Shown one piece after another: positions 10,734 to 29,325 of a DNA stretch of 46,950 bases (positions within the stretch are counted from its first letter, which is position 1; the number at the start of each line of letters is the position of its first letter). The stretch covers positions 1 through 46,950 of the IMG/VR virus record IMGVR_UViG_3300032274_000010. The stretch is one strand, 5' to 3'. Made by a program: the position numbers and the translations under genes. The notes below the pieces were generated by a model. The model was not told the origin of the DNA, did no database searches, and saw only the letters and a program-made list of their open reading frames with translations. This stretch comes from a virus (taxonomy: Duplodnaviria; Caudoviricetes).

Positions 10734-12857
10734 CTATGCGGTCCCGGTCGGGAACCTATTCAATTCGGCCAAGACCGCTTGCTCTTGCGAGTCGAATGCC
10801 GCGACTATAGCCTCAATAGCCTGATCCTCGAAAGTAGCGCGGCGGCGGTCGTAAACTTCAAACAATTCCACCCGCTTTTCCTCCGTGTCCGCGACTGATC
10901 GGACGGACGACACGTCCTCCCCTTCCAGTTCAGGGAATACGGGCAAGATCGAACAACGACAATTTATGTCCTCCGACCCGACACCAAACTCGCCGGGATA
11001 CGGGGCAGAATAACCATTGTCTGAAAAGAATAGGCCGTCTTCCGCGACGATTGTCCCGTCCAAATTGCGATGCGAGTCGCGGGCCTTGCCGTCGCGGGTT
11101 GTGAGCCATTCTTTTTGCTCGACGCCCGCTTGATGGAATGCCTCCGACGTTGCGAAGTTGGACGCGCGGACGATCTCTGTCCGGGCAATTGTCGGGGCGT
11201 TGTCCCGGCGTCCGCCAAACACGGCCCGAATCCGGTCGGCCAAACGATCAGACGACTCCCCGGCGGCGATCCCTTCCGACAGTGTCGCGCGCAAGGCGTT
11301 TTGGCTTGTCGCGTTTGTCAGGTCGCGAATCCGGTCGCCGCTGAATGTTTGGACAAAGTCGGCGACGCGGGGGTCGGCCAAGTCGAAACTGATCAGGAAA
11401 CCATATTCCGCAACCGCTGCCGATCCGAACGCGGCAATTGTTTCGATCAGGATCGGCCCGATTGAGTCCGCAATAGCTTCCGCAACCGCCGCCCCGACGA
11501 GTCGCTCTATGTCGTCCTCGTCCCATGCCTTGCCGACAACGTCGCCGCTGATCGCCTTGGACGCCGCCGGGCCGCTGATCGCTGCCGACTTGCCCGATCC
11601 CTGCTCCGCGTCCAAGACGGCAACCTCGCGGACGTTGATCGGCATTATACGCCGCGCGCCTTGATCGTCTGGCAACGGGGGCAAACCGAAAATCATGTCG
11701 CGGCGCTCGTTGATTGTCAGGATTTCGCGATTGTCCGTCGCGGCCTTGATCTTGCGATCCTCGTCCTCCCGGACCGGGTCTTCAAACCCAACACGCAAGC
11801 CCGCCCCAAATTGCGGGGCTAACTGCCCGTTAATCGCTTCCGTGATCAGGACAGACCGGGGCCGGACAATGTTCGCGGCGAGGATATAATCGGCGTTTTC
11901 GATTGTTGAGCGATTGCTGTTTTCAACAACCCCCATGATCTCCGGGGACATGCCATAGACCATGAGGATCAGGTCGCGCTCAAACTTGCGGACGGTGTCG
12001 ATTCCGAGATCCCCGAATCCCTGCCCGACTTCCGTCACTTCCAAACGCCGGGCGCTAAACAGGGGCTTCCCCTTTTTGCCGACGCCCCGGAATTTGTCAT
12101 ACCATTTTTCCTCCAACCGGACAGCTTCGTCCCGGTTGAGCGGTTCGTCTTTGCCTTGGATAATCAGATCGGGCCGGGCGTGATTGGCAAAGAACGCGGC
12201 GGCATGTTTTGCCGCGTATTCGTCCACGTTGATTTCGTCCTCAAGCGATTGCGCGATCCCTGATCCGCGTCCGTAAGGGTCTTCGAGGTCCGGGTCTTTG
12301 ATCCAAACAATATCCGCCTCCGGTATATCGACGGCAGACGCGGACGCATTTGTCGGGCGGACACTAAACAACGGGCGCTCCGGCGTCGGCGTTGCGTGAA
12401 TCCAATGCGGCGGCAGGGCATAAAGACGATTCGGGATTCCCCGGTTGTCCCGCCCGATCCCGATAAACGCCTCGCCGAGAATTTCGATATAGGCGGCGCT
12501 GATCTTGCGCAACGCAAACCCGGACAGGCCGGGACCGCCGCGCTCCCATAGGCGCACGATTGGGTGATGGGGGAGGTATTGCCAGCCCGACCCGACGTTC
12601 GCTTCAACATATAGCGGGACAGACGCGACGCGGTCGGCGATCTTGGACACGACAGCCCGCAACAACGGGGCCTCGCGATATGCGCGCAAGAACGACACGG
12701 CCCCCCGGCGGGGCAAACTTGTCGCAATGCCGGGCCGATATGTGAGCGAGTCTAAGGCCGCCGACTTGCTGCCAACCCCCGCTAAAAGATTGACCGCGCG
12801 CGGCGTCCGACGGATCGCGTCAAGGGTCCGCTCTAAAATGTTTTTAGAAGAAGTCAT
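10734..12857 (-). CDS. Portal protein fused to Mu gpF/SPP1 gp7-like minor head domain
   Basis: HK97-like portal motifs (GEAFI, LPPHWI, FFAN.ARP, LTINERR) followed by IARTE...KEW.T.RD...R.SH..LDG...INCRC. Start taken at MTSSKN. Confidence 0.9.
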   Translation of the reverse strand: MTSSKNILERTLDAIRRTPRAVNLLAGVGSKSAALDSLTYRPGIATSLPRRGAVSFLRAYREAPLLRAVVSKIADRVASVPLYVEANVGSGWQYLPHHPIVRLWERGGPGLSGFALRKISAAYIEILGEAFIGIGRDNRGIPNRLYALPPHWIHATPTPERPLFSVRPTNASASAVDIPEADIVWIKDPDLEDPYGRGSGIAQSLEDEINVDEYAAKHAAAFFANHARPDLIIQGKDEPLNRDEAVRLEEKWYDKFRGVGKKGKPLFSARRLEVTEVGQGFGDLGIDTVRKFERDLILMVYGMSPEIMGVVENSNRSTIENADYILAANIVRPRSVLITEAINGQLAPQFGAGLRVGFEDPVREDEDRKIKAATDNREILTINERRDMIFGLPPLPDDQGARRIMPINVREVAVLDAEQGSGKSAAISGPAASKAISGDVVGKAWDEDDIERLVGAAVAEAIADSIGPILIETIAAFGSAAVAEYGFLISFDLADPRVADFVQTFSGDRIRDLTNATSQNALRATLSEGIAAGESSDRLADRIRAVFGGRRDNAPTIARTEIVRASNFATSEAFHQAGVEQKEWLTTRDGKARDSHRNLDGTIVAEDGLFFSDNGYSAPYPGEFGVGSEDINCRCSILPVFPELEGEDVSSVRSVADTEEKRVELFEVYDRRRATFEDQAIEAIVAAFDSQEQAVLAELNRFPTGTA

Positions 12858-14442
12858 GCCGCCCGCTTTCGTTTTCCTTAGCAATTTCCAACGCCGCGTT
12901 ATATGCGTCGGCGGTTGCGTCGATTCTGTCGTCATGCGCGCCCCGTGGGAATGCTGCCATTTCGTCGAGGTAATCTTGATTCCACGGCGCGCGGACTAGG
13001 TGAACCCTACCGATTTCCGCTTGCGCCGACAATGGACGCGCGCGGGCGACCTTTGATCCGGTCGGGGCCTTGGCCTGTATGTCGAACCCGGCGAGTTTGC
13101 CAATGATTGCCGTTGAGGCGTATTTGCCGCCGCTGCCGGGGTCTTGCGGAATCCGGACAGGGATTTCCGGCCCGTCAAGTTCTGCCGTCGATTTAATCCG
13201 GTCGTCAACTTGGGCCGGGGACAGACGGCCCCGCTCCTCGTGTTCTAGATAAACGTCATAAGTCACAAGATCGGGGGCGGACGAATCAGACGACGGCTGT
13301 CGGGCGACCTCAACAAGCGAAAGCAACATGCCGACCGTATAGTCGGGATCGCCTGTCGTCGCCTCGTCCGACGCGGCAAAGTCCCAAGCCCGGACGCGGG
13401 CGGCAACATTGCGCGGGGCGCGATCAACGACCTTGAAGTCGGCCTTTTTGAACATGCCCCCGGCGCGCTCTGTCGGCGTCTGTCCATACTGCCCGGAATA
13501 AGCAAACGACCCTAAGCGATCCCGGATCGCCGACAGCACGTCCGACCCAATCCGCTCCGGCCATAGCGGCTCGCCCGGTGTCGTCCGCCAATCCCCCTCG
13601 AATCCGAACGGGTGATCTGGATCGTATTCCGCCGCAAGGCAAACATGTCGCCAAGTGTCGCCCTCGCTGTCGATCAGGTATCCGGACAGGTCGCGTTCAT
13701 GGAGCCTTTGCATGATCACGATAATTGCGTCTTTCGACGGGTCGTTCATGCGGTTTGCAATCGTCTCCCGATAGGTCCGCTTCGCGTCGTCCAATGCGTT
13801 GGGGCTGTCGGCGTCTTTCGCTTTGTGCGGGTCGTCAATCACAATGATATTCCCGCCCTCCCCTGTTGCGCCCCCGTCAAACCCGACCGCGATCCGGTGT
13901 CCCCCGGACGTGTTGTCGTATCGCGTTTTCTGATTTTGATCGCCTGAAAAGACGACGCGGGGGATCAGGCCGTCGATCCGACTATCGACGCCCCAACGCG
14001 CGGAATACCAAGGGGACAGCATGAGTCGCCGCGCCTTCAAGGCGTCGCGGGTTGCCAGTTGTTGCGCATAGCTAACGGACAAGAATTGAACGCCTGCCCC
14101 GGCCAAGGGACCGGCGGTCGGGGGCAAGGCCCAAACCAAAGCGGGGAACGACACGGAAACCATGAGGGACTTGGAATGTCGGGGGGCGATATTGATCAGG
14201 AGAAAACGGGTCTTGCCCGTGATCACGTCCTCCAATTCGCGCGCAATGGTTTCCAAGTGTCGCCCGTGGACGTAGGGGGCCGGGTCCATTATTGCCCAAG
14301 CCCGGCGGTGGAATCCCATGAGTCCGCAATCGGGGTGATCCGTTGACAGGTCTTCCACGTTTGCCCGATCCAACGCCCGGCGCAATTTTTCGCGATCCCG
14401 TGGATTGGACAGGGCGGCCTTGATCTGATCGGCGTCGATCAA
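12844..14442 (-). CDS. terL: Terminase large subunit
   Basis: INIAPRHSKS Walker A, IIVIDDPHK Walker B, MQRLHE.DL, RAWDFA, HDD.IDA. Confidence 0.95.
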   Translation of the reverse strand: MIDADQIKAALSNPRDREKLRRALDRANVEDLSTDHPDCGLMGFHRRAWAIMDPAPYVHGRHLETIARELEDVITGKTRFLLINIAPRHSKSLMVSVSFPALVWALPPTAGPLAGAGVQFLSVSYAQQLATRDALKARRLMLSPWYSARWGVDSRIDGLIPRVVFSGDQNQKTRYDNTSGGHRIAVGFDGGATGEGGNIIVIDDPHKAKDADSPNALDDAKRTYRETIANRMNDPSKDAIIVIMQRLHERDLSGYLIDSEGDTWRHVCLAAEYDPDHPFGFEGDWRTTPGEPLWPERIGSDVLSAIRDRLGSFAYSGQYGQTPTERAGGMFKKADFKVVDRAPRNVAARVRAWDFAASDEATTGDPDYTVGMLLSLVEVARQPSSDSSAPDLVTYDVYLEHEERGRLSPAQVDDRIKSTAELDGPEIPVRIPQDPGSGGKYASTAIIGKLAGFDIQAKAPTGSKVARARPLSAQAEIGRVHLVRAPWNQDYLDEMAAFPRGAHDDRIDATADAYNAALEIAKENESGRHDFF

Positions 14443-14852
14443 GAGTCGTTGCCTGCCGCTGCCTCTGCCGCCTCAAGGGCCGCCTGCAAACTGTCGCGGG
14501 CGGTTTTGGGCAGAGTCGCAATATCTGCCGCCCCGGACAATGCCTGTCCGTCGGCCCCTGTGACTTCCGTCCGGGTCGTATATCCCCGGCCCTTGCCTTG
14601 TGTTGTCAGGAAAAAAATGATCGCCCGGAGATTGCCGCCCCTGATCTTGTTCGCAAGATTCGCCTCCGCAATGTCCAACAGGGTTTCGCGTTGCGTGTCC
14701 CGAACGTCGATCAGGGCAGGCGACCGGCGGACTCGTTCGTCCAACGCCTTGCGACTGATCCCGAGCATCTTGGACGCGACAGCGATCACGCCCCCGGCCT
14801 TTGCCAGTGCGCTCGAAATTTCGTCGTCGTTATGACTCGGAGGCTTTGCCAT
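14439..14852 (-). CDS. terS: Terminase small subunit
   Basis: N-terminal HTH; A.IFFL.TQGK.RGY..R.E.TG.DG; overlaps the terL start. Confidence 0.85.
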   Translation of the reverse strand: MAKPPSHNDDEISSALAKAGGVIAVASKMLGISRKALDERVRRSPALIDVRDTQRETLLDIAEANLANKIRGGNLRAIIFFLTTQGKGRGYTTRTEVTGADGQALSGAADIATLPKTARDSLQAALEAAEAAAGNDS

Positions 14853-15787: not shown

Positions 15788-16192
15788 CTATGCGTCAACG
15801 TCGCCGGGGGCAGGCTGGCAGATTGCGGAAAATTCTTTTTGAAACATTCCCAAGGGTTGCCGGGGGCCTTCATATCGCTTGTTTGCGTCTGTCCGGCGTT
15901 GGAATTGAAAGTCAATCGGCAACCCCCCGGACATGGCGGAAAAATGGCGGGACATTGCGGCATTCATAATTGAAAGGCGGGCGCTCAATACGTCGTTTGC
16001 CCCGGCCCCGAATAAAAGGTCGAAGTCCGAGTCGTCCAAGATCGCGCGAATATCAATATCACGAAAATCGGGCCGGGTCGTTGCCGATCCGACAAGATAC
16101 GGAATCACGCCGAAAGACATTTTGATCAAATGCCCAATCTGCAATAATGTCGCATGATCAGGCTGTCCAATGTAGCAGGATTTTTCTGTCAT
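15788..16192 (-). CDS. Minimal nucleotidyltransferase (Pol-beta superfamily)
   Basis: YLVGS...RDIDIR...PIDFQF; ATGA overlap with the MTase stop. Confidence 0.75.
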   Translation of the reverse strand: MTEKSCYIGQPDHATLLQIGHLIKMSFGVIPYLVGSATTRPDFRDIDIRAILDDSDFDLLFGAGANDVLSARLSIMNAAMSRHFSAMSGGLPIDFQFQRRTDANKRYEGPRQPLGMFQKEFSAICQPAPGDVDA

Positions 16193-18354
16193 GTTGCGGA
16201 TTCCTCCGGGGCCGTGATCGCGTCCTCGTCAAAATAGACCGGCCCGCAACGCCCGGCGGCCCGCTTGGGATCGCCCTTCACGAATACAAGAATATTTTGA
16301 TGCGTCTTCCCGATCTTGCGGGTTGCCGTCATAGATTTGCCCGCCCGGATCGCCAACGACCCGACGGGGGAGACAAGGATCGCCTCGTTGTAATAGTCGA
16401 GTCCAGCGTCACGCATGGCGGCGACCGTATCCCCGACGAAATTCCGATAAATGCCCTTCCGGTCCCGTATCTCCCCGACGACAATCGCGGCGAAGCTGTC
16501 GGGCTTCAACCGGGCCGCCGCTGCCGACAAGATCGTCCGATATACGGCGACGAAATCCGCATAAGGCATATTCGACAGATCGCGGGGGTCGTCGCTATAG
16601 ACCTCAAGATCGGCATAGGGCGGGCAGGTGAACAGGAAGTCGGCGTCTGGATCGCCCGGCAAGTCCGGGATCACGACGGCGGAGTCCCCGGCAATCCACG
16701 ACGGCCCGGCCTGATCGTCGGCGACCGGCAGGGGCAACGCGGTCGCCCGGATTCCAACGATCCAAAACAGATCGCCCGGCGCGATATGGGGGACGCATTT
16801 GCCCTCATAGTGCGGATCAAGGGGCAGGCCCGCGAACGTCGTGTCCGGGGCCGGGTCGTGATAGTCCGTCCCGCTGTCGATCAGGTCGACTCGGTCGCGC
16901 CAATTTGCGGGGGCGTATTTGTCCAACCGTTTGGCCGGATCGGCCCCGACCTTGACGCCGACGACCGGCAGATCGCCCCGGCCCGCGTCGTCTAATCCAT
17001 GCAACAGGCCAGCAAGCGACATGCCAGAACCGACAGGGATCACGATCCGGGCAACGTCCGCCGGTATGTCTTGGACCTGTCGGCGGGTTTGCGTGATCGC
17101 CTCCTCGCATTCCATGCCGAACGGGATCTCCACAAACTTGCGGGCCTTAGCGTCCTCCCGCGCGCGGGCAATGATAACGCTATTGTGTCCGGGCTTGTGT
17201 TGTTCGATCACGGCCCCGGCGTCACGGGCCGCAATAACCTCCGGCGACAGTTTCCCCTTGGGGGTGTGGCAACGGGCTTTCAGGCCCAAATGTGCGGCAA
17301 CACGGGCAACAATGTTGACTTGCGGACTAGATCGCGACCCGGCGGTCGTGATCCCTGCCGCCCCGGAATCCTTGGCGCGTTGCGCTAGGGCGAGGCACGT
17401 CCGGACCTTGCCGCCCGGCGCGCCGTTGATCTCGAACAGGTCGTCGCGTTTGATCCAGTTGTCCCCGTGTTTTTCGATAGGCGTCGCCGCGTCTGGATCG
17501 GACACGACCGGGCGGGCCGGGGTCTTGCCCTGCCGGGCGGCGATCTTGTCCCATTGCGCGCCGTTGGCCGCGACCTGTTCCGCGCGCAAGTCGACTCCCA
17601 AATAACGACGGCCTAGCAGGGCCGCGACAACGCCCCGGACTGATCCCCCGGCAAACGGGTCGAGGATCAGGCCGCCGGGCGGACTGAACCACGTATAGGC
17701 CAACTCGCAGACGACAGGATCAAAGATCGAAACGCCCGTATCAAACGCCGGGAGATAGTCGTATTTTTTCGAGTCGGTCGTATAGGATACGGCGTCGCGC
17801 CCTAACTCGCTTTCGATCCCTTGCGTGATCCATGCGGCCTTGCGGGCCTGCCATGTCCCCTCGCGGGCGTTCAACACGCTGAAAGGCGGGACGCCGAAAC
17901 GCTCCGCAAGCGATCCGGCCCCGCCTGATCCGTCGCCTGATCCGCTGCCGCCGTCGTCTGTGTCGATCAGGTCGGCCAGCCCCAAGGATTCCAAGTCGAT
18001 CTCGTCGTCCTCAATAATCCGATCAAGTTCGGCCTGCAATGCCGCCTCGTTCCAATCTGACTTGAGCGCGATTGCATTGTCCGCGATCCGATAGGCTCGC
18101 GCCTGTGCGGGCGTCAAATGCCCGAGGACGAAGGTCGGGACTTCTGCCAGCCCCAACAGATTGGCGGCCAAGACTCGCCCGTGTCCGGCGACAATCGTCC
18201 GCCCGTCCGCTTCTAACAGGACCGGCACGTTGAAACCGAACTCGTCAATTGACGCGGCAATCTGTCGGACCTGCTCGTCGCTGTGATCGCGGCTATTCAG
18301 GGCATAGGGGAGCAAGTCCCCGATCTGTTTAAGTTCCGTTTTCATGTCCGCCAT
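16189..18354 (-). CDS. ParB-N / amino-MTase fusion with inserted PLP-dependent (fold type II) domain
   Basis: ParB: N.R.H...SI.EFGF..P...GHGR..AA. MTase: LDPFAGGS, GVDL, GDS, FTCPPY. Insert: TPIE...KRDD...GGKVR...PVGSGMS.AG...LDPHYEGK. Start uncertain (18345, 18354 or 18381). Confidence 0.9.
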   Translation of the reverse strand: MADMKTELKQIGDLLPYALNSRDHSDEQVRQIAASIDEFGFNVPVLLEADGRTIVAGHGRVLAANLLGLAEVPTFVLGHLTPAQARAYRIADNAIALKSDWNEAALQAELDRIIEDDEIDLESLGLADLIDTDDGGSGSGDGSGGAGSLAERFGVPPFSVLNAREGTWQARKAAWITQGIESELGRDAVSYTTDSKKYDYLPAFDTGVSIFDPVVCELAYTWFSPPGGLILDPFAGGSVRGVVAALLGRRYLGVDLRAEQVAANGAQWDKIAARQGKTPARPVVSDPDAATPIEKHGDNWIKRDDLFEINGAPGGKVRTCLALAQRAKDSGAAGITTAGSRSSPQVNIVARVAAHLGLKARCHTPKGKLSPEVIAARDAGAVIEQHKPGHNSVIIARAREDAKARKFVEIPFGMECEEAITQTRRQVQDIPADVARIVIPVGSGMSLAGLLHGLDDAGRGDLPVVGVKVGADPAKRLDKYAPANWRDRVDLIDSGTDYHDPAPDTTFAGLPLDPHYEGKCVPHIAPGDLFWIVGIRATALPLPVADDQAGPSWIAGDSAVVIPDLPGDPDADFLFTCPPYADLEVYSDDPRDLSNMPYADFVAVYRTILSAAAARLKPDSFAAIVVGEIRDRKGIYRNFVGDTVAAMRDAGLDYYNEAILVSPVGSLAIRAGKSMTATRKIGKTHQNILVFVKGDPKRAAGRCGPVYFDEDAITAPEESAT

Positions 18355-18529: not shown

Positions 18530-18558
18530 AAAAAAAAGACCCCGGACGATGCCGGGGC
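18530..18558 (-). terminator. Intrinsic terminator
   Basis: GCCCCGG-catcgt-CCGGGGT-C-TTTTTTTT. Confidence 0.8.
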
Positions 18559-18583
18559 CGAGTTGGGGACTGTTGTCGGGTTG

Positions 18584-22334: not shown

Positions 22335-22607
22335 TCACCCCTCAACGGCCCCAAGGTAAAGCTCGGTTAGGGCGTCCGTCTCCTGTCGCTCGTTGCGGTC
22401 AATCTTGCGCAAGGCGACGACCCGGCGGAGGATTTTGGAATCGTATCCCATAGCCTTGGACTCCGCATAGATTTCCTTCCGTCCGTCTTGCGCGGACGCA
22501 ATTTCCTCCTCCATCCGTTCGATCCGGGCGACAAAGGCCCGCAACTGATCGCGGGCGGCCTGCCCGATTCCCTGTTCTGCTGTCGTGTCTGTGTTTGTGT
22601 CTGTCAT
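22335..22607 (-). CDS. gapR: GapR/DUF2312 nucleoid-associated protein
   Basis: QLRAFVARIERMEEE...KEIYAESKAMGYDSKILRRVVALRK.D..ERQE.DA..ELY. Confidence 0.92.
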   Translation of the reverse strand: MTDTNTDTTAEQGIGQAARDQLRAFVARIERMEEEIASAQDGRKEIYAESKAMGYDSKILRRVVALRKIDRNERQETDALTELYLGAVEG

Positions 22608-24345: not shown

Positions 24346-24807
24346 TTATCCCGGCGCGCGGGCCGTCATAGGGGGACTGTCAGGGACGGAATCCCCCCAA
24401 TTGTCCCGGATCAGTTTGCGGGTTGATTCCGGCAGGGCATAACCCCGGCCCCATATCGTCTTGATCTTGATTCCAAAGGGTTGAACCTTTTTCCTGATCT
24501 TGCAGACATAAACGTCGATTATCTTGAGCCCCGCCCCGCCGTCGGCCCCGGAATCCCAATAAAGCGCCAAGTGCAAGGCGTCTTTTGTTGCCTCGCGGTT
24601 TGCCCACAAACACGCGAAAAGGGCTTCCTCTGACGTTGTCAGGCCCCATTCATCCGGAGACAAAAACCCGGCCCGGCCAATTTTGGCCGTCTCCAATAAA
24701 GCGACCTTTTCGCGCAATTCGGCGTTTTCAGATTCCAGCGCGGCGGCCTTTGCCTCCGCAAGTCGGAGTCGGTCGTCCCGGTCGCCGGTCCCGCTGATCT
24801 GTCTCAT
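24346..24807 (-). CDS. Coiled coil plus OmpR/CtrA-type winged-helix protein, no receiver domain
   Basis: LT.SE...TK..L...LY...LKIIDVYVCKIRKK...I.TIWGRGY.L, close to CtrA KIIDVFICKLRKK...IETVWGRGY. Confidence 0.88.
   Translation of the reverse strand: MRQISGTGDRDDRLRLAEAKAAALESENAELREKVALLETAKIGRAGFLSPDEWGLTTSEEALFACLWANREATKDALHLALYWDSGADGGAGLKIIDVYVCKIRKKVQPFGIKIKTIWGRGYALPESTRKLIRDNWGDSVPDSPPMTARAPG
24369..24398 (-). promoter_or_regulatory. Gapped palindrome copy F (inside the 3' end of the CtrA-like gene)
   Basis: GGGGGGAT-tccgtccctgaca-GTCCCCCTA, 61 nt upstream of ATG 24308. Confidence 0.75.
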
Positions 24808-25628
24808 TGCTGCAATGACCCTTGATAAATTGCGTCCGCGAGAATCCTCATTGTTGGCTTGCCCGATTCCTTTGCCCGGTTCCGCGCGATCAGTTCAAGA
24901 CTCGCCTGATCAACGGACAACAGGAAAGACGAAATCGCAAGATCGGACGGGCGGGGGTTGTGATAGGTGCGAGTCCACAACAGGCGGGCAAGGGCGCTGA
25001 TCAGGACGGCCCCGACAGGCGCGCGGCGGGCGTCAATTGCAATCCTGAAAATCCGCCGGACTCCCGCTTTGCCCTTGGCCTTGGCGACCTTGCGGATTGC
25101 CAAGGGGGAAACAGTGTCGCCGATAACATACCGCCCGGCGGGGGGCGGGGCGCGCAAAACCCGACCGCCTGCCAGCGTGACTCCATCCTGTGCCGCGTTG
25201 GCAACGTCGTCGCCTGCCAGCAAGTCGGCGTAAAATATCTGCAAGGAAGTCATGGCAACGCGGTCGCGGTTGAGTCCGACAAAGGCCGCCGCCCGCTGTT
25301 GCGCCGTTTCCGTCGTCACAATGAAACAGGGAATCGCGGGAATGCTGCCATGTGTCGCGGCGGCGGTCGCCAAGTGCTGCCCGTCCAATATCTCGAAATT
25401 CCCGTCGCCGGTCGGCGTCACGGTCGCCGGTCGGACGTGTGTCCAATCAAAGCCCCGGACAAGTGCGCGAATCAGTGTTATTGATCGTTTACCAATCTGC
25501 CGTTGATATTGATCATTCACGCGGAGTCGATCTAGCGGAATCCAATCAAAATCCGGGCGGGGGCCGACGACGGCCCGGTCCTCAATCGCCCCTTGCAGGC
25601 GTGTAATCTTGCGCATTGTGTCCGCCAT
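24804..25628 (-). CDS. ParB/Srx-like protein (DUF6551-like)
   Basis: L.V...YQR...FDW...ILDGQH...A..FV.LN..R..M..LQIF.A. Confidence 0.8.
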   Translation of the reverse strand: MADTMRKITRLQGAIEDRAVVGPRPDFDWIPLDRLRVNDQYQRQIGKRSITLIRALVRGFDWTHVRPATVTPTGDGNFEILDGQHLATAAATHGSIPAIPCFIVTTETAQQRAAAFVGLNRDRVAMTSLQIFYADLLAGDDVANAAQDGVTLAGGRVLRAPPPAGRYVIGDTVSPLAIRKVAKAKGKAGVRRIFRIAIDARRAPVGAVLISALARLLWTRTYHNPRPSDLAISSFLLSVDQASLELIARNRAKESGKPTMRILADAIYQGSLQQ

Positions 25629-25891
25629 TATGAGTCCCTCCGGGTTGGATCGACGCCGTCTCGGCAAAACCGGACGGCGCGCGATATGCTGTTCTTCATT
25701 GTGCTGGCCTTGGGGGCCTTGCCGCCGCGCGACATGGGGATCGTTATCGACCGGCCCGACGGTCGGGCGACAATCAATCGCAAGTGCCGACTCCCCGACG
25801 CGCCAATCGTCACGGTCGCGCCGTAATCTTGGACGGCGGCGGACAGGCGGGCGATATAATCCCGAATCGCCTTTGTCATACGTTCAGACAT
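25628..25891 (-). CDS. Small basic protein, possibly HicA-like
   Basis: G...GSRH..L...G..ITIP...T.KN pattern. Confidence 0.45.
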   Translation of the reverse strand: MSERMTKAIRDYIARLSAAVQDYGATVTIGASGSRHLRLIVARPSGRSITIPMSRGGKAPKASTMKNSISRAVRFCRDGVDPTRRDS

Positions 25892-27567: not shown

Positions 27568-27890
27568 CGCCCGACCGCCGGGTCGGGCGGCATGTTGTCA
27601 GGGTATCCGGTCGGGCGGGTCTGATCGTATGGATCAGGGCAAACAAAACCGGGATTCGCGATCATAACGCGACTACACCAAACCGACATATCTATCCGCT
27701 TCCAGTTTTCCGGGCTGTTTTGGATTTCTGCAATCCGGGCGTCGATTGCGTAGAGCAAAAACAACGTGTGAACAGCAAAAAGACTCACGGCCCCGACCGC
27801 CCCGATCAGGGCAGACAATCGCCAAGCGGGCGGGTCTTGAAGCCTCAAGACTGGAATATCAAAATGATCGGAGTCCTGTTTTTTATCCAT
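27564..27890 (-). CDS. Single-pass membrane protein with C-terminal two-Cys domain
   Basis: TM LSALIGAVGAVSLFAVHTLFLLYAI, then WC...CPDP; overlaps the PAS gene. Confidence 0.7.
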   Translation of the reverse strand: MDKKQDSDHFDIPVLRLQDPPAWRLSALIGAVGAVSLFAVHTLFLLYAIDARIAEIQNSPENWKRIDMSVWCSRVMIANPGFVCPDPYDQTRPTGYPDNMPPDPAVGR

Positions 27891-28401
27891 TAGGCGCGCC
27901 CCGTCCAATCTGTCGGATCACTTCTGCAACAATCAAACCGATTGCCGTCGTCCCGGAGGCCACAATCGGCCAATTGTCGCGGAGCCAACGCAAAGGGTTT
28001 GCCCCGGTGTGTTTAATCTTTGTTTCCCGTCGAGGCAAATGGACTCGCATGACGGGCCGACATTGCACGGCGTAATGACTAAATAAACCGCCCTTAAAAA
28101 CGCCTTCGACATAAATCTCGGCCCAAAGCAATTCCTCTGTTTTCGTCCAATATCGCTTTGTCATTGGATAAGCGGAGATCTCACCCTCCCGGACCTGCCG
28201 GGCCTGCTCCACGTCGACTTGCACGTCTGCCGGGTGTGTTATGTCTTGGAAAGACAATCGGCCTTCAATCTCGAACCGCGAATAACCGAGCATTTCCGCA
28301 TATCGTTCGTTCAAGGAAATGAAAACGCCGTCGGCCCCTATTTCCGCGATTCCTATATAGCACTTCCCGAACGCGACCGCCTGCAATGTTTCGTGTCTCA
28401 T
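27883..28401 (-). CDS. PAS-domain protein with C-terminal TM helix
   Basis: GIA....DG.F...N.RY.EMLGYS..E..G...FQDITHP.D...Y...KRY..K....W; TM WPIVASGTTAIGLIVAEVI. Confidence 0.88.
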   Translation of the reverse strand: MRHETLQAVAFGKCYIGIAEIGADGVFISLNERYAEMLGYSRFEIEGRLSFQDITHPADVQVDVEQARQVREGEISAYPMTKRYWTKTEELLWAEIYVEGVFKGGLFSHYAVQCRPVMRVHLPRRETKIKHTGANPLRWLRDNWPIVASGTTAIGLIVAEVIRQIGRGAPNG

Positions 28402-28515: not shown

Positions 28516-29325
28516 TCAGATCAGCGGAAGAGTCGGCCTGTCGTTTGCAAACAATGGACCGGCGGACAAAGCGTCGTCAATCCGTCGGCAGGCCGCCCCA
28601 AAATGTCGCGGATCAATCTCCGACCCGATAAACCGGCGGCCTATACGCAACGCCCCAAGGGCCGCCGCCCCGGTCCCCGTAAACGGATCAAAGATCAGTT
28701 CGCCGGGCGTCGTTATGTCGCCGATCCATTGGGCAAACAATCCGACGGGCTTTTCGGTCGGGTGATCTGTCGCGGACTTGAATCCGTGAATCGAGGTGAT
28801 TTGATCGGCCCCCGGTTTGTTTATAACCGGGCGACTTTTCCCCGCGTATCCATAGAGCGCAAACTCTGCCCCCGCCATGATCCAACGATTAGGCGTTTTC
28901 GATTGTCTTGCCCAAACTAGCAGGCGGTGAAATCGGACGGCATTTTCGGCCGCCGCGTTTAACAGGTCGCGGAGATTGCGGTCGTTGGACATGATCACAA
29001 GATCAGAGTCGGGCTGTAATGCGGGCAGGGCGGCCCTGATCCATGTCGTGAACGCGAGGTCCGTCCCGGCGACGATCTTGCCGTCGTTGGCATACCTTTC
29101 GGCGCTGAACTTGCCCCCCATAGACTTGGGATCGGCAGATCGCCCGCCGGTCGTCAACGGATAGGGCGGATCACTAAAAAGTGACCGGGGCCGATCTGCC
29201 GGGTCGCAATCTGCCAGCATGTCGAACAGGTCAAAGCATGAGCCAAGATAAAGACGGGCGACGACTTGTCCGCCGACGGTCCACGTCTGGAATCCCGCCG
29301 AGTCTAGTTTACGACGCGCCAACAT
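28516..29325 (-). CDS. Beta-class N6A/N4C DNA methyltransferase
   Basis: DPPY...HPTEKP...IFDPFTGTG...R.FIGSEID, in beta-class motif order. Confidence 0.92.
   Translation of the reverse strand: MLARRKLDSAGFQTWTVGGQVVARLYLGSCFDLFDMLADCDPADRPRSLFSDPPYPLTTGGRSADPKSMGGKFSAERYANDGKIVAGTDLAFTTWIRAALPALQPDSDLVIMSNDRNLRDLLNAAAENAVRFHRLLVWARQSKTPNRWIMAGAEFALYGYAGKSRPVINKPGADQITSIHGFKSATDHPTEKPVGLFAQWIGDITTPGELIFDPFTGTGAAALGALRIGRRFIGSEIDPRHFGAACRRIDDALSAGPLFANDRPTLPLI

Follow-up and report, generated by a model that had tools for sequence, protein, structure and literature searches.

A phage ParB-methyltransferase split by a PLP enzyme: a candidate DNA amino(carboxy)propyl transferase

What does a pyridoxal 5'-phosphate (PLP) enzyme do inside a DNA methyltransferase? 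The question is raised by a 721-amino-acid protein encoded on the minus strand at positions 16189..18354 of IMG/VR record IMGVR_UViG_3300032274_000010, a phage record of 46,950 bp (59.8% GC, with a 127-bp terminal repeat) that we analyzed over its full length and refer to as the window. In this protein a ParB-like domain is followed by the N-terminal half of a methyltransferase, a PLP enzyme, and the C-terminal half of the methyltransferase. The answer that we find somewhat probable is that the methyltransferase fold would move the ACP (3-amino-3-carboxypropyl) arm of S-adenosylmethionine (SAM), rather than the methyl group, onto a DNA base, and that the PLP domain nested in it would go on to split off CO2, so that the base would end up with a 3-aminopropyl group and its positive charge.

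The open reading frame (ORF), which might instead begin at another ATG (18345), can be divided into four parts, all on the minus strand. The ParB-like domain (residues 5-125, 17980..18342) matches ParB-like PHROG families with E-values from 1e-43 to 1e-28 (best 1.7e-43), and the A1 profile of the protein matches Spo0J/Noc/ParB chains; the Pfam ParB_N score of 17.1 bits is below the cut-off. A Gly/Ser/Asp-rich linker, predicted to be flexible from a predicted local distance difference test (pLDDT) value below 50 (residues 132-145, 17920..17961), leads to the N-terminal methyltransferase half (residues 149-274, 17533..17910), which was assigned by Pfam and by superposition on Trm11. This half scores against Pfam N6_N4_Mtase (44.1 bits, cut-off 26.7, matching residues 223-261) and holds the SAM-binding motifs I and II, motif I being DPFAGGSVR (residues 232-240, 17635..17661), with Gly237 and Arg240, as well as GVDL at residues 253-256. 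The nested fold-type II PLP enzyme (residues 285-540, 16735..17502) lies between motifs II and III, at the point that the target-recognition domain occupies in alpha-class DNA methylases. It matches Pfam PALP (43.3 bits, cut-off 35) as well as phrog_3650 and phrog_7093, and contains TPIE (291-294), KRDD (302-305), GGKVR (314-318) with the predicted Schiff-base lysine Lys316 (17407..17409), the predicted PLP phosphate-binding loop PVGSGMSLAG (440-449, 17008..17037) and the motif LDPHYEGK (512-519, 16798..16821). The C-terminal methyltransferase half (residues 552-700, 16255..16701) supplies motif III, GDS (556-558), and the catalytic motif IV, TCPPY (576-580, 16615..16629), in which the cysteine is present in 269 of 273 relatives and replaced by serine in the other four; a family-invariant loop, DLE.YS, follows.

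In an AlphaFold model built on an 85-sequence alignment (mean pLDDT 89, predicted template-modelling score 0.63), residues 285-540 form a complete PLP enzyme that can be superposed on 1j0a with a Z-score of 25.7 and a root-mean-square deviation (rmsd) of 2.5 across 252 residues. Taken together, residues 149..693 match Trm11 (5e72) as a single domain, with Z 18.1 and an rmsd of 2.7 across 183 residues; in the model the two methyltransferase halves thus refold into one Rossmann domain. A previous sequence-only reading of this DNA had described one ORF with a ParB domain, a split methyltransferase and a PLP insert, and had left it to modelling whether the halves reassemble. The ORF is real, all the motifs quoted in that reading are located in it, and the halves do come together in the model.

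A chimeric assembly can be ruled out as the origin of this architecture by the existence of nested homologs and by a 3-kb stretch that is intact in assembled contigs: runs X1 and X2 each contain it in one 46,853-bp contig with 0 differences, although this DNA may itself come from one or the other run. With the full-length protein as query, 2923 of the 8000 candidates that were scored matched. The best 120 homologs, the query included, comprise 108 nested proteins and 12 with a C-terminal PLP domain, and the lysine motif pattern is present in 118 of them. The survey of domain architecture suggested by the sequence-only reading therefore shows a recurrent nested order, which is also found in a cultured phage, Pam4, whose gp70 carries a PLP domain of the same clade. 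Among other cultured phages, R6L gp1 has a PLP domain of a different clade nested at the same place, the PLP enzyme is the next gene after the methyltransferase in JY30 and Vincenzo, a small PLP-like gene adjoins the methyltransferase in FA88, and in P2559S the next gene encodes a SAM decarboxylase. When the PLP domain was searched alone, 928 clusters were found, 381 (clusters at 50% identity) with E <= 1e-30. Among the representatives of the best 150 clusters, a half of this methyltransferase shares the chain in 112, in a nested, N-terminal or C-terminal arrangement, while 20 stand alone and 18 have other extensions. The CPPY pattern occurs in about 2,800 IMG/VR stretches.

Which reaction might the nested enzyme catalyze? 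The insert had been described as being of the 1-aminocyclopropane-1-carboxylate (ACC) deaminase/D-cysteine desulfhydrase kind. This holds for the fold, as these enzymes are its closest solved structures (Z 24-26, best template 1j0a), but not for family membership. The insert reaches 22-41 bits against NCBIfam TIGR01274, TIGR01275 and PRK03910, whose cut-offs are 289-610; the C-terminal H[TL]GG of four cellular proteins (FIHTGG, FLHTGG, YAHLGG) is absent and FWIVG stands in its place; and in an IQ-TREE phylogeny of 43 rows the cellular desulfhydrases and deaminases form a clade of their own (support 97/97). A metabolic gene of either kind was rejected on these grounds.

The insert probably groups instead with phage DNA decarboxylases, its nearest characterized relatives in the tree being gp226 of Salmonella phage ViI and gp52 of Pseudomonas phage M6, which share with it the fold type, the best template 1j0a, the aligned lysine and the C-terminal motif FW[IN][VI]G. 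BLASTP aligns it with M6 gp52 over the full length (25% identity, E 7e-12), and the profile of the insert scores 50 bits with gp226 and 36 with gp52. Lys316 is invariant in 85/85 aligned sequences and aligns with K36 of gp52 and K92 of gp226, the predicted aldimine lysines of these enzymes in the available part of the report on them (Lee et al., PMC8989533), as would be expected if the lysine in GGKVR formed the Schiff base, as had been proposed. G442, S443 and G449 of the phosphate-binding loop are likewise invariant, and the loop aligns with ASGSAGT of D-cysteine desulfhydrase. For both gp52 and gp226, decarboxylation of amino acids that are linked to thymidine within DNA has been demonstrated, and a free alpha-amine is required; the two are stand-alone enzymes whose substrate is the serine or glycine that a kinase and ADDT have put on 5-hydroxymethyluracil (5-hmU) (PMC8989533, in the same part).

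The setting here is different, as ADDT and 5-hmU kinase genes were not found and the insert shares its chain with a SAM enzyme as partner. None of the five genomes searched for PF18724 (ADDT) has it (this genome, R6L, Vincenzo, Pam4 and JY30), with M6 positive as a control, and six M6 and Montesquieu pathway proteins have no match anywhere in the window. A place in the 5-hmU pathway was rejected on the basis of these queries and of Pfam scans of 80 window ORFs. In the PLP tree, Vincenzo gp2 and gp226 fall into one clade (100/98), and the R6L/JY30 clade joins gp52 (87/83), a join that long branches make uncertain. One and the same methyltransferase, with Gly and Arg at positions 237 and 240, is linked to three PLP lineages: that of the insert, that of R6L/JY30 and that of Vincenzo gp2.

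These two positions proved informative across the family. Loci were collected with several queries from six viral scans, one genome scan and six annotated records, and fractions among them are not prevalences; 502 were examined, of which 499 contained the C-terminal half. In 390 motif I could be read and the downstream sequence extended for 1 kb or more, and these reduced to 273 non-redundant relatives at 90% identity. Positions 237 and 240 sort these 273 relatives by partner gene. Those with Asp and Phe (D..F) are accompanied by a SAM decarboxylase in 52/52 cases, the D loci of one scan having been fetched by motif and not by partner, and the ESH self-cleavage motif is kept in 65/65 SAM decarboxylase sequences. 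All four E..K relatives have a third, small PLP-like gene, and for the ten D..K relatives no SAM decarboxylase or PLP partner was detected. Another 206 are G..R, the type of the 721-residue protein, and 70 of them have a PLP enzyme, in one case as a weak match 4.9 kb away. Seen from the PLP side, the linked methyltransferase is G..R in 70/70 cases of the locus set and in 102 of 109 cases of the PLP-domain set, where seven could not be parsed and none is D..F. A G..R enzyme never adjoins a SAM decarboxylase of its own: the one case so scored (L466) owes its decarboxylase to a second, D..F gene, the two units lying about 1.6 kb apart on this phage contig, and L441, a misparsed row, is on inspection D..F with a SAM decarboxylase. 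Downstream of CPPY, residues D582, L583, E584, Y586, S587, D592 and S594 are at least 90% conserved in each of the five partner groups, a sign that the family may share a single transfer chemistry.

An analogy to spermidine synthase offers an explanation for this sorting. In that enzyme D103 and V106 decide between decarboxylated SAM (dcSAM) and SAM (PMC3725402, available part). The D..F relatives resemble the spermidine synthase/SAM decarboxylase pair in having Asp at the D103 position and in lying directly upstream of the decarboxylase gene, so this branch most likely uses dcSAM, known for aminopropyl transfer; the 721-residue protein differs from spermidine synthase by Gly237/Arg240, the PPY motif and the ParB domain. 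The whole family might then move the long arm of SAM, with G..R members accepting the carboxylate and so transferring ACP with release of methylthioadenosine, and the PLP decarboxylase, acting on DNA after transfer, would reach the same aminopropyl end product as the dcSAM route. The relatives gp52 and gp226 need a free alpha-amine on the base adduct and an ACP adduct has one, so the PLP step fits. That the acceptor is DNA is suggested by the ParB domain, the PPY motif, the likeness to N4/N6 DNA methylases and the position near the terminase genes; candidate positions would be N4 of cytosine, N6 of adenine or N2 of guanine. G..R enzymes without a partner would stop at ACP or be plain methylases. 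For microcin C an aminopropyl route has been proposed in which MccD, an ACP transferase of methyltransferase fold, is followed by the PLP decarboxylase MccE (PMC10491745, available part); the substrate there is a peptide-adenylate and not DNA, and the likeness to our protein is one of chemistry alone. SAM-derived ACP transfer with PLP trimming had been among the suggestions of the sequence-only reading and gains support from the homology to gp52 and gp226, the co-variation of the pocket and the tree, while the chemistry itself is still something that we infer.

A number of observations weigh against ACP transfer followed by decarboxylation. Support is moderate (91/88) and branches are long where the insert clade joins the group of Vincenzo gp2, MONT_41 and gp226 as its sister. 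At 135 of the 206 G..R loci no PLP gene lies within the 5-10 kb examined, 47 of 57 G-type loci in a partner-blind sample are without one, and no residue separates PLP-linked from partnerless G..R enzymes. On a FastTree tree of 274 rows the motif type changes 4 times and the presence of SAM decarboxylase 3 times, and the D..F/SAM decarboxylase link therefore reflects few events and not 52 independent ones; for the presence of PLP there are 49 changes (after shuffling, 63 on average and 54 at the least) and for that of fused PLP1 17 (17.5 after shuffling), which means either frequent gain and loss or poor tree resolution. Positions 237 and 240 correspond to D103 and V106 as the same i and i+3 by motif I convention only, and a profile alignment to one SpeE sequence, which places FAGD on GGGD, is not significant (hhalign probability 0.4-0.5, E 0.13). 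Homologs of AdoMetDC can be ornithine or arginine decarboxylases (PMC10407285, available part). Foldseek comparison of the uninterrupted methyltransferase model returned generic class I matches led by Trm11, and the top matches Trm11, TrmN and Trm14 are RNA methyltransferases; the top rows of the fold comparisons contain no DNA methylase, while the sequence profile matches are DNA N4/N6 methylases. Lastly, the D103I and V106T exchanges turn spermidine synthase into a methyltransferase (PMC3725402, available part), and G..R members, which lack the Asp, could therefore be plain methylases.

This last possibility, a DNA methylase making N4-methylcytosine or N6-methyladenine that carries a PLP enzyme for another substrate so that the fusion co-delivers two activities, is unlikely in our estimation. 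Like the orphan phage ParB-fused N6-adenine/N4-cytosine methyltransferases (PF01555, phrog_498), the protein combines a ParB fusion, an intact PPY motif, proximity to a terminase and a Pfam score above the cut-off; the partner-blind sample and the spermidine synthase exchange point the same way, as does the fact that the insertion slot accepts other domains too. N6/N4 amino-methyltransferases have the motif I consensus FxGxG (FAGTG in 2zie) and (N/D/S)PP(Y/F/W) as motif IV. Our protein departs from this pattern with FAGGS, in which Ser238 replaces the third glycine throughout the family, and with CPPY; motif I precedes motif IV, a whole enzyme lies between motifs II and III, and the pocket co-varies with decarboxylase partners. 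Also, a methyl group is no substrate for a PLP enzyme, the search for another adduct-forming enzyme (ADDT and the pathway proteins) was empty, three PLP lineages are linked to the one methyltransferase family, and 112 of the best 150 PLP matches share a chain with it.

Alternatively, ACP could be transferred and the PLP domain could deaminate or racemize it or erase the mark by gamma-elimination. The closest solved folds, a deaminase homolog, a desulfhydrase and dehydratases, would agree with this, and YEGK of the insert matches the Glu of ACC deaminase. However, gp226, a demonstrated decarboxylase, also has YEGK and likewise shows WIVG-type residues in place of the cellular H[TL]GG, and the alternative partner in the D..F branch is a SAM decarboxylase, which makes such an activity quite improbable. 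We are just as doubtful that the same chemistry serves an acceptor other than DNA, be it a polyamine for DNA condensation, tRNA or a virion protein. A methyltransferase fold next to a SAM decarboxylase is the layout of the spermidine pathway, the top folds are those of RNA enzymes and the genome keeps its restriction-site avoidance (see below), whereas 225 of 273 loci have a ParB domain, either as a fusion or close by, PPY is retained, sequence matches lead to DNA N4/N6 methylases and not significantly to SpeE, and the PLP clade is also found fused to DNA polymerase A. Least probable is the reverse order, in which the PLP domain makes dcSAM from SAM for the transferase to use, giving the same aminopropyl base: it would suit the mutual exclusion of PLP and SAM decarboxylase partners and is also allowed for MccD/MccE (PMC10491745, available part), but PLP-linked enzymes keep Gly/Arg and never have the Asp/Phe pocket, and gp52 and gp226 act on DNA. 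An aminopropyl base made by either order of steps is, in sum, fairly probable.

Whether the widespread "ParB-DNA methylase" family as a whole consists of DNA amino(carboxy)propyl transferases seems to us evenly balanced. Under this hypothesis ACP-bases would be written by the transferase alone, and aminopropyl-bases either through a PLP decarboxylase that acts after transfer or, where the pocket has been remodelled, through a SAM decarboxylase that acts ahead of it, while GNAT, 2OG-Fe, Cys-cluster and PP-loop partners would tailor the products further; with this family, DNA hypermodification would gain a branch that draws on SAM and has single chains as its writers. In a scan of 33 longer or unusual proteins the PLP clade was found fused to GNAT, 2OG-Fe dioxygenase, QueC-like and DNA polymerase A domains, which would fit tailoring of the amine. 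Proteins with such fusions or with inteins are P0134, P0183, P0192, P0185, P0205, P0227 and P0237, the inteins being present in two of the methyltransferases. The insertion slot of the methyltransferase takes domains other than the PLP enzyme as well: L023, L024, P0013, P0020 and P0118 have a Cys-rich domain (weak DUF3109) either nested within this methyltransferase or joined to it, and in L024 no PLP domain is present.

The minor motif types have neighbors of their own. Four of the ten D..K relatives (L184, L427, L437, L443) are followed by a PP-loop gene that is weakly QueC-like, and a SAM synthetase precedes two (L429, L443); the arm that comes from SAM might be tailored in a further way here. 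The E..K relatives, which have SPPY (L006:5848-6384, L291, L292, L294), are always accompanied by a 180-residue gene with PLP-like motifs recognized by eye and no Pfam or NCBIfam match, a candidate PLP-type SAM decarboxylase. In L101, L102 and L111 the PLP partner directly follows the methyltransferase on the opposite strand. In Staphylococcus phage Alsa_1 (L305:867-3627) a stand-alone member of the PLP clade and a distant SPPY methyltransferase are encoded about 1 kb apart, separated by the gene of a Cys-pair protein.

The 721-residue protein would represent a widespread variant of phage DNA hypermodification assembled from known parts. If the proposed chemistry is right, DNA would be alkylated with the long arm of SAM, a new DNA-modification chemistry; transfer of this arm is known from tRNA, rRNA and small molecules, and for DNA we found none in the literature searched. 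A common family (the roughly 2,800 CPPY stretches and 381 PLP clusters) would be re-annotated, and a one-polypeptide tool that places a primary amine on DNA from natural SAM would become available, with members at hand in the cultured phages Pam4, vB_EliS-R6L, Mae-JY30, Vincenzo and P2559S. Iyer et al. (2013) reportedly treated ParB-terminase loci and may already note the association. Published descriptions of this fusion or of ACP or aminopropyl DNA bases were not found in a search that did not extend to supplementary files, such as possible contig lists of PMC8989533. R6L ORF 1 is called a CcrM-like methylase, with no mention of the PLP domain in the available part of the paper (PMC5463345), the announcement of Vincenzo leaves genes 1-2 undiscussed (PMC4472886), and the parts available of PMC7824862, PMC13444090 and PMC13458397 contain nothing on the fusion.

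What role could such a modification have in this phage? The window encodes terminase, portal, protease, capsid, tail and RecT proteins. The gene lies 1.3 kb upstream, on the same strand, of a helix-turn-helix protein, likely the small terminase, and the large terminase (12844..14852, minus strand; Pfam HTH_8 and Terminase_6C). It likely heads a unit running into these packaging genes; a terminator-like hairpin with a T8 tail is found upstream (18538..18559, minus strand) by consensus match, where 6 such matches were found in the region and 5.7 expected. A terminase-like ORF is present in 111 of 256 related loci with enough flank. The link to packaging is one of gene position alone.

The composition of the genome bears on a protective role. 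Of the 64 palindromic hexamers 37 are absent from it, compared with 12 of 3006 non-palindromes; in the window CCCGGG occurs 0 times with 69 expected, CCWGG and CTCAG/CTGAG (CTSAG) do not occur, GATG is at 0.16 of expectation and GATC is abundant (580 sites). Avoidance of restriction sites as extreme as this suggests that the host has many systems of restriction. The depletion of GATG is not common to related loci, and no common avoided 4-mer that would mark a target site was found among them. Observed/expected ratios of palindromes are 0.62 in loci with fused PLP (n=16) and 0.68 in those without a partner (n=110). Depletion thus persists in this genome and in fused-PLP loci, which makes a dense anti-restriction coat unlikely, and a genome-wide restriction shield was dismissed as unsupported. 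More probably, the mark is sparse or goes with late replication and packaging; it may act against a specific defence or have a charge-reducing or signalling role in packaging.

A 134-residue ORF (15788-16192, minus strand) overlaps the stop of the gene and contains a motif, GS...DIDI, which we take to resemble that of Pol-beta-type nucleotidyltransferases; it has no Pfam, PHROG or NCBIfam match and no homolog in about 500 related loci. Further genes on the minus strand encode a second, conventional beta-type N6/N4 methylase with DPPY before FTGTG (28516-29325), a second ParB-like protein (24804-25667), a PAS-domain protein (27883-28401), a GapR-like DNA-binding protein (22335-22607) that suggests an alphaproteobacterial host, and a portal protein fused to a MuF domain (10734-12935).

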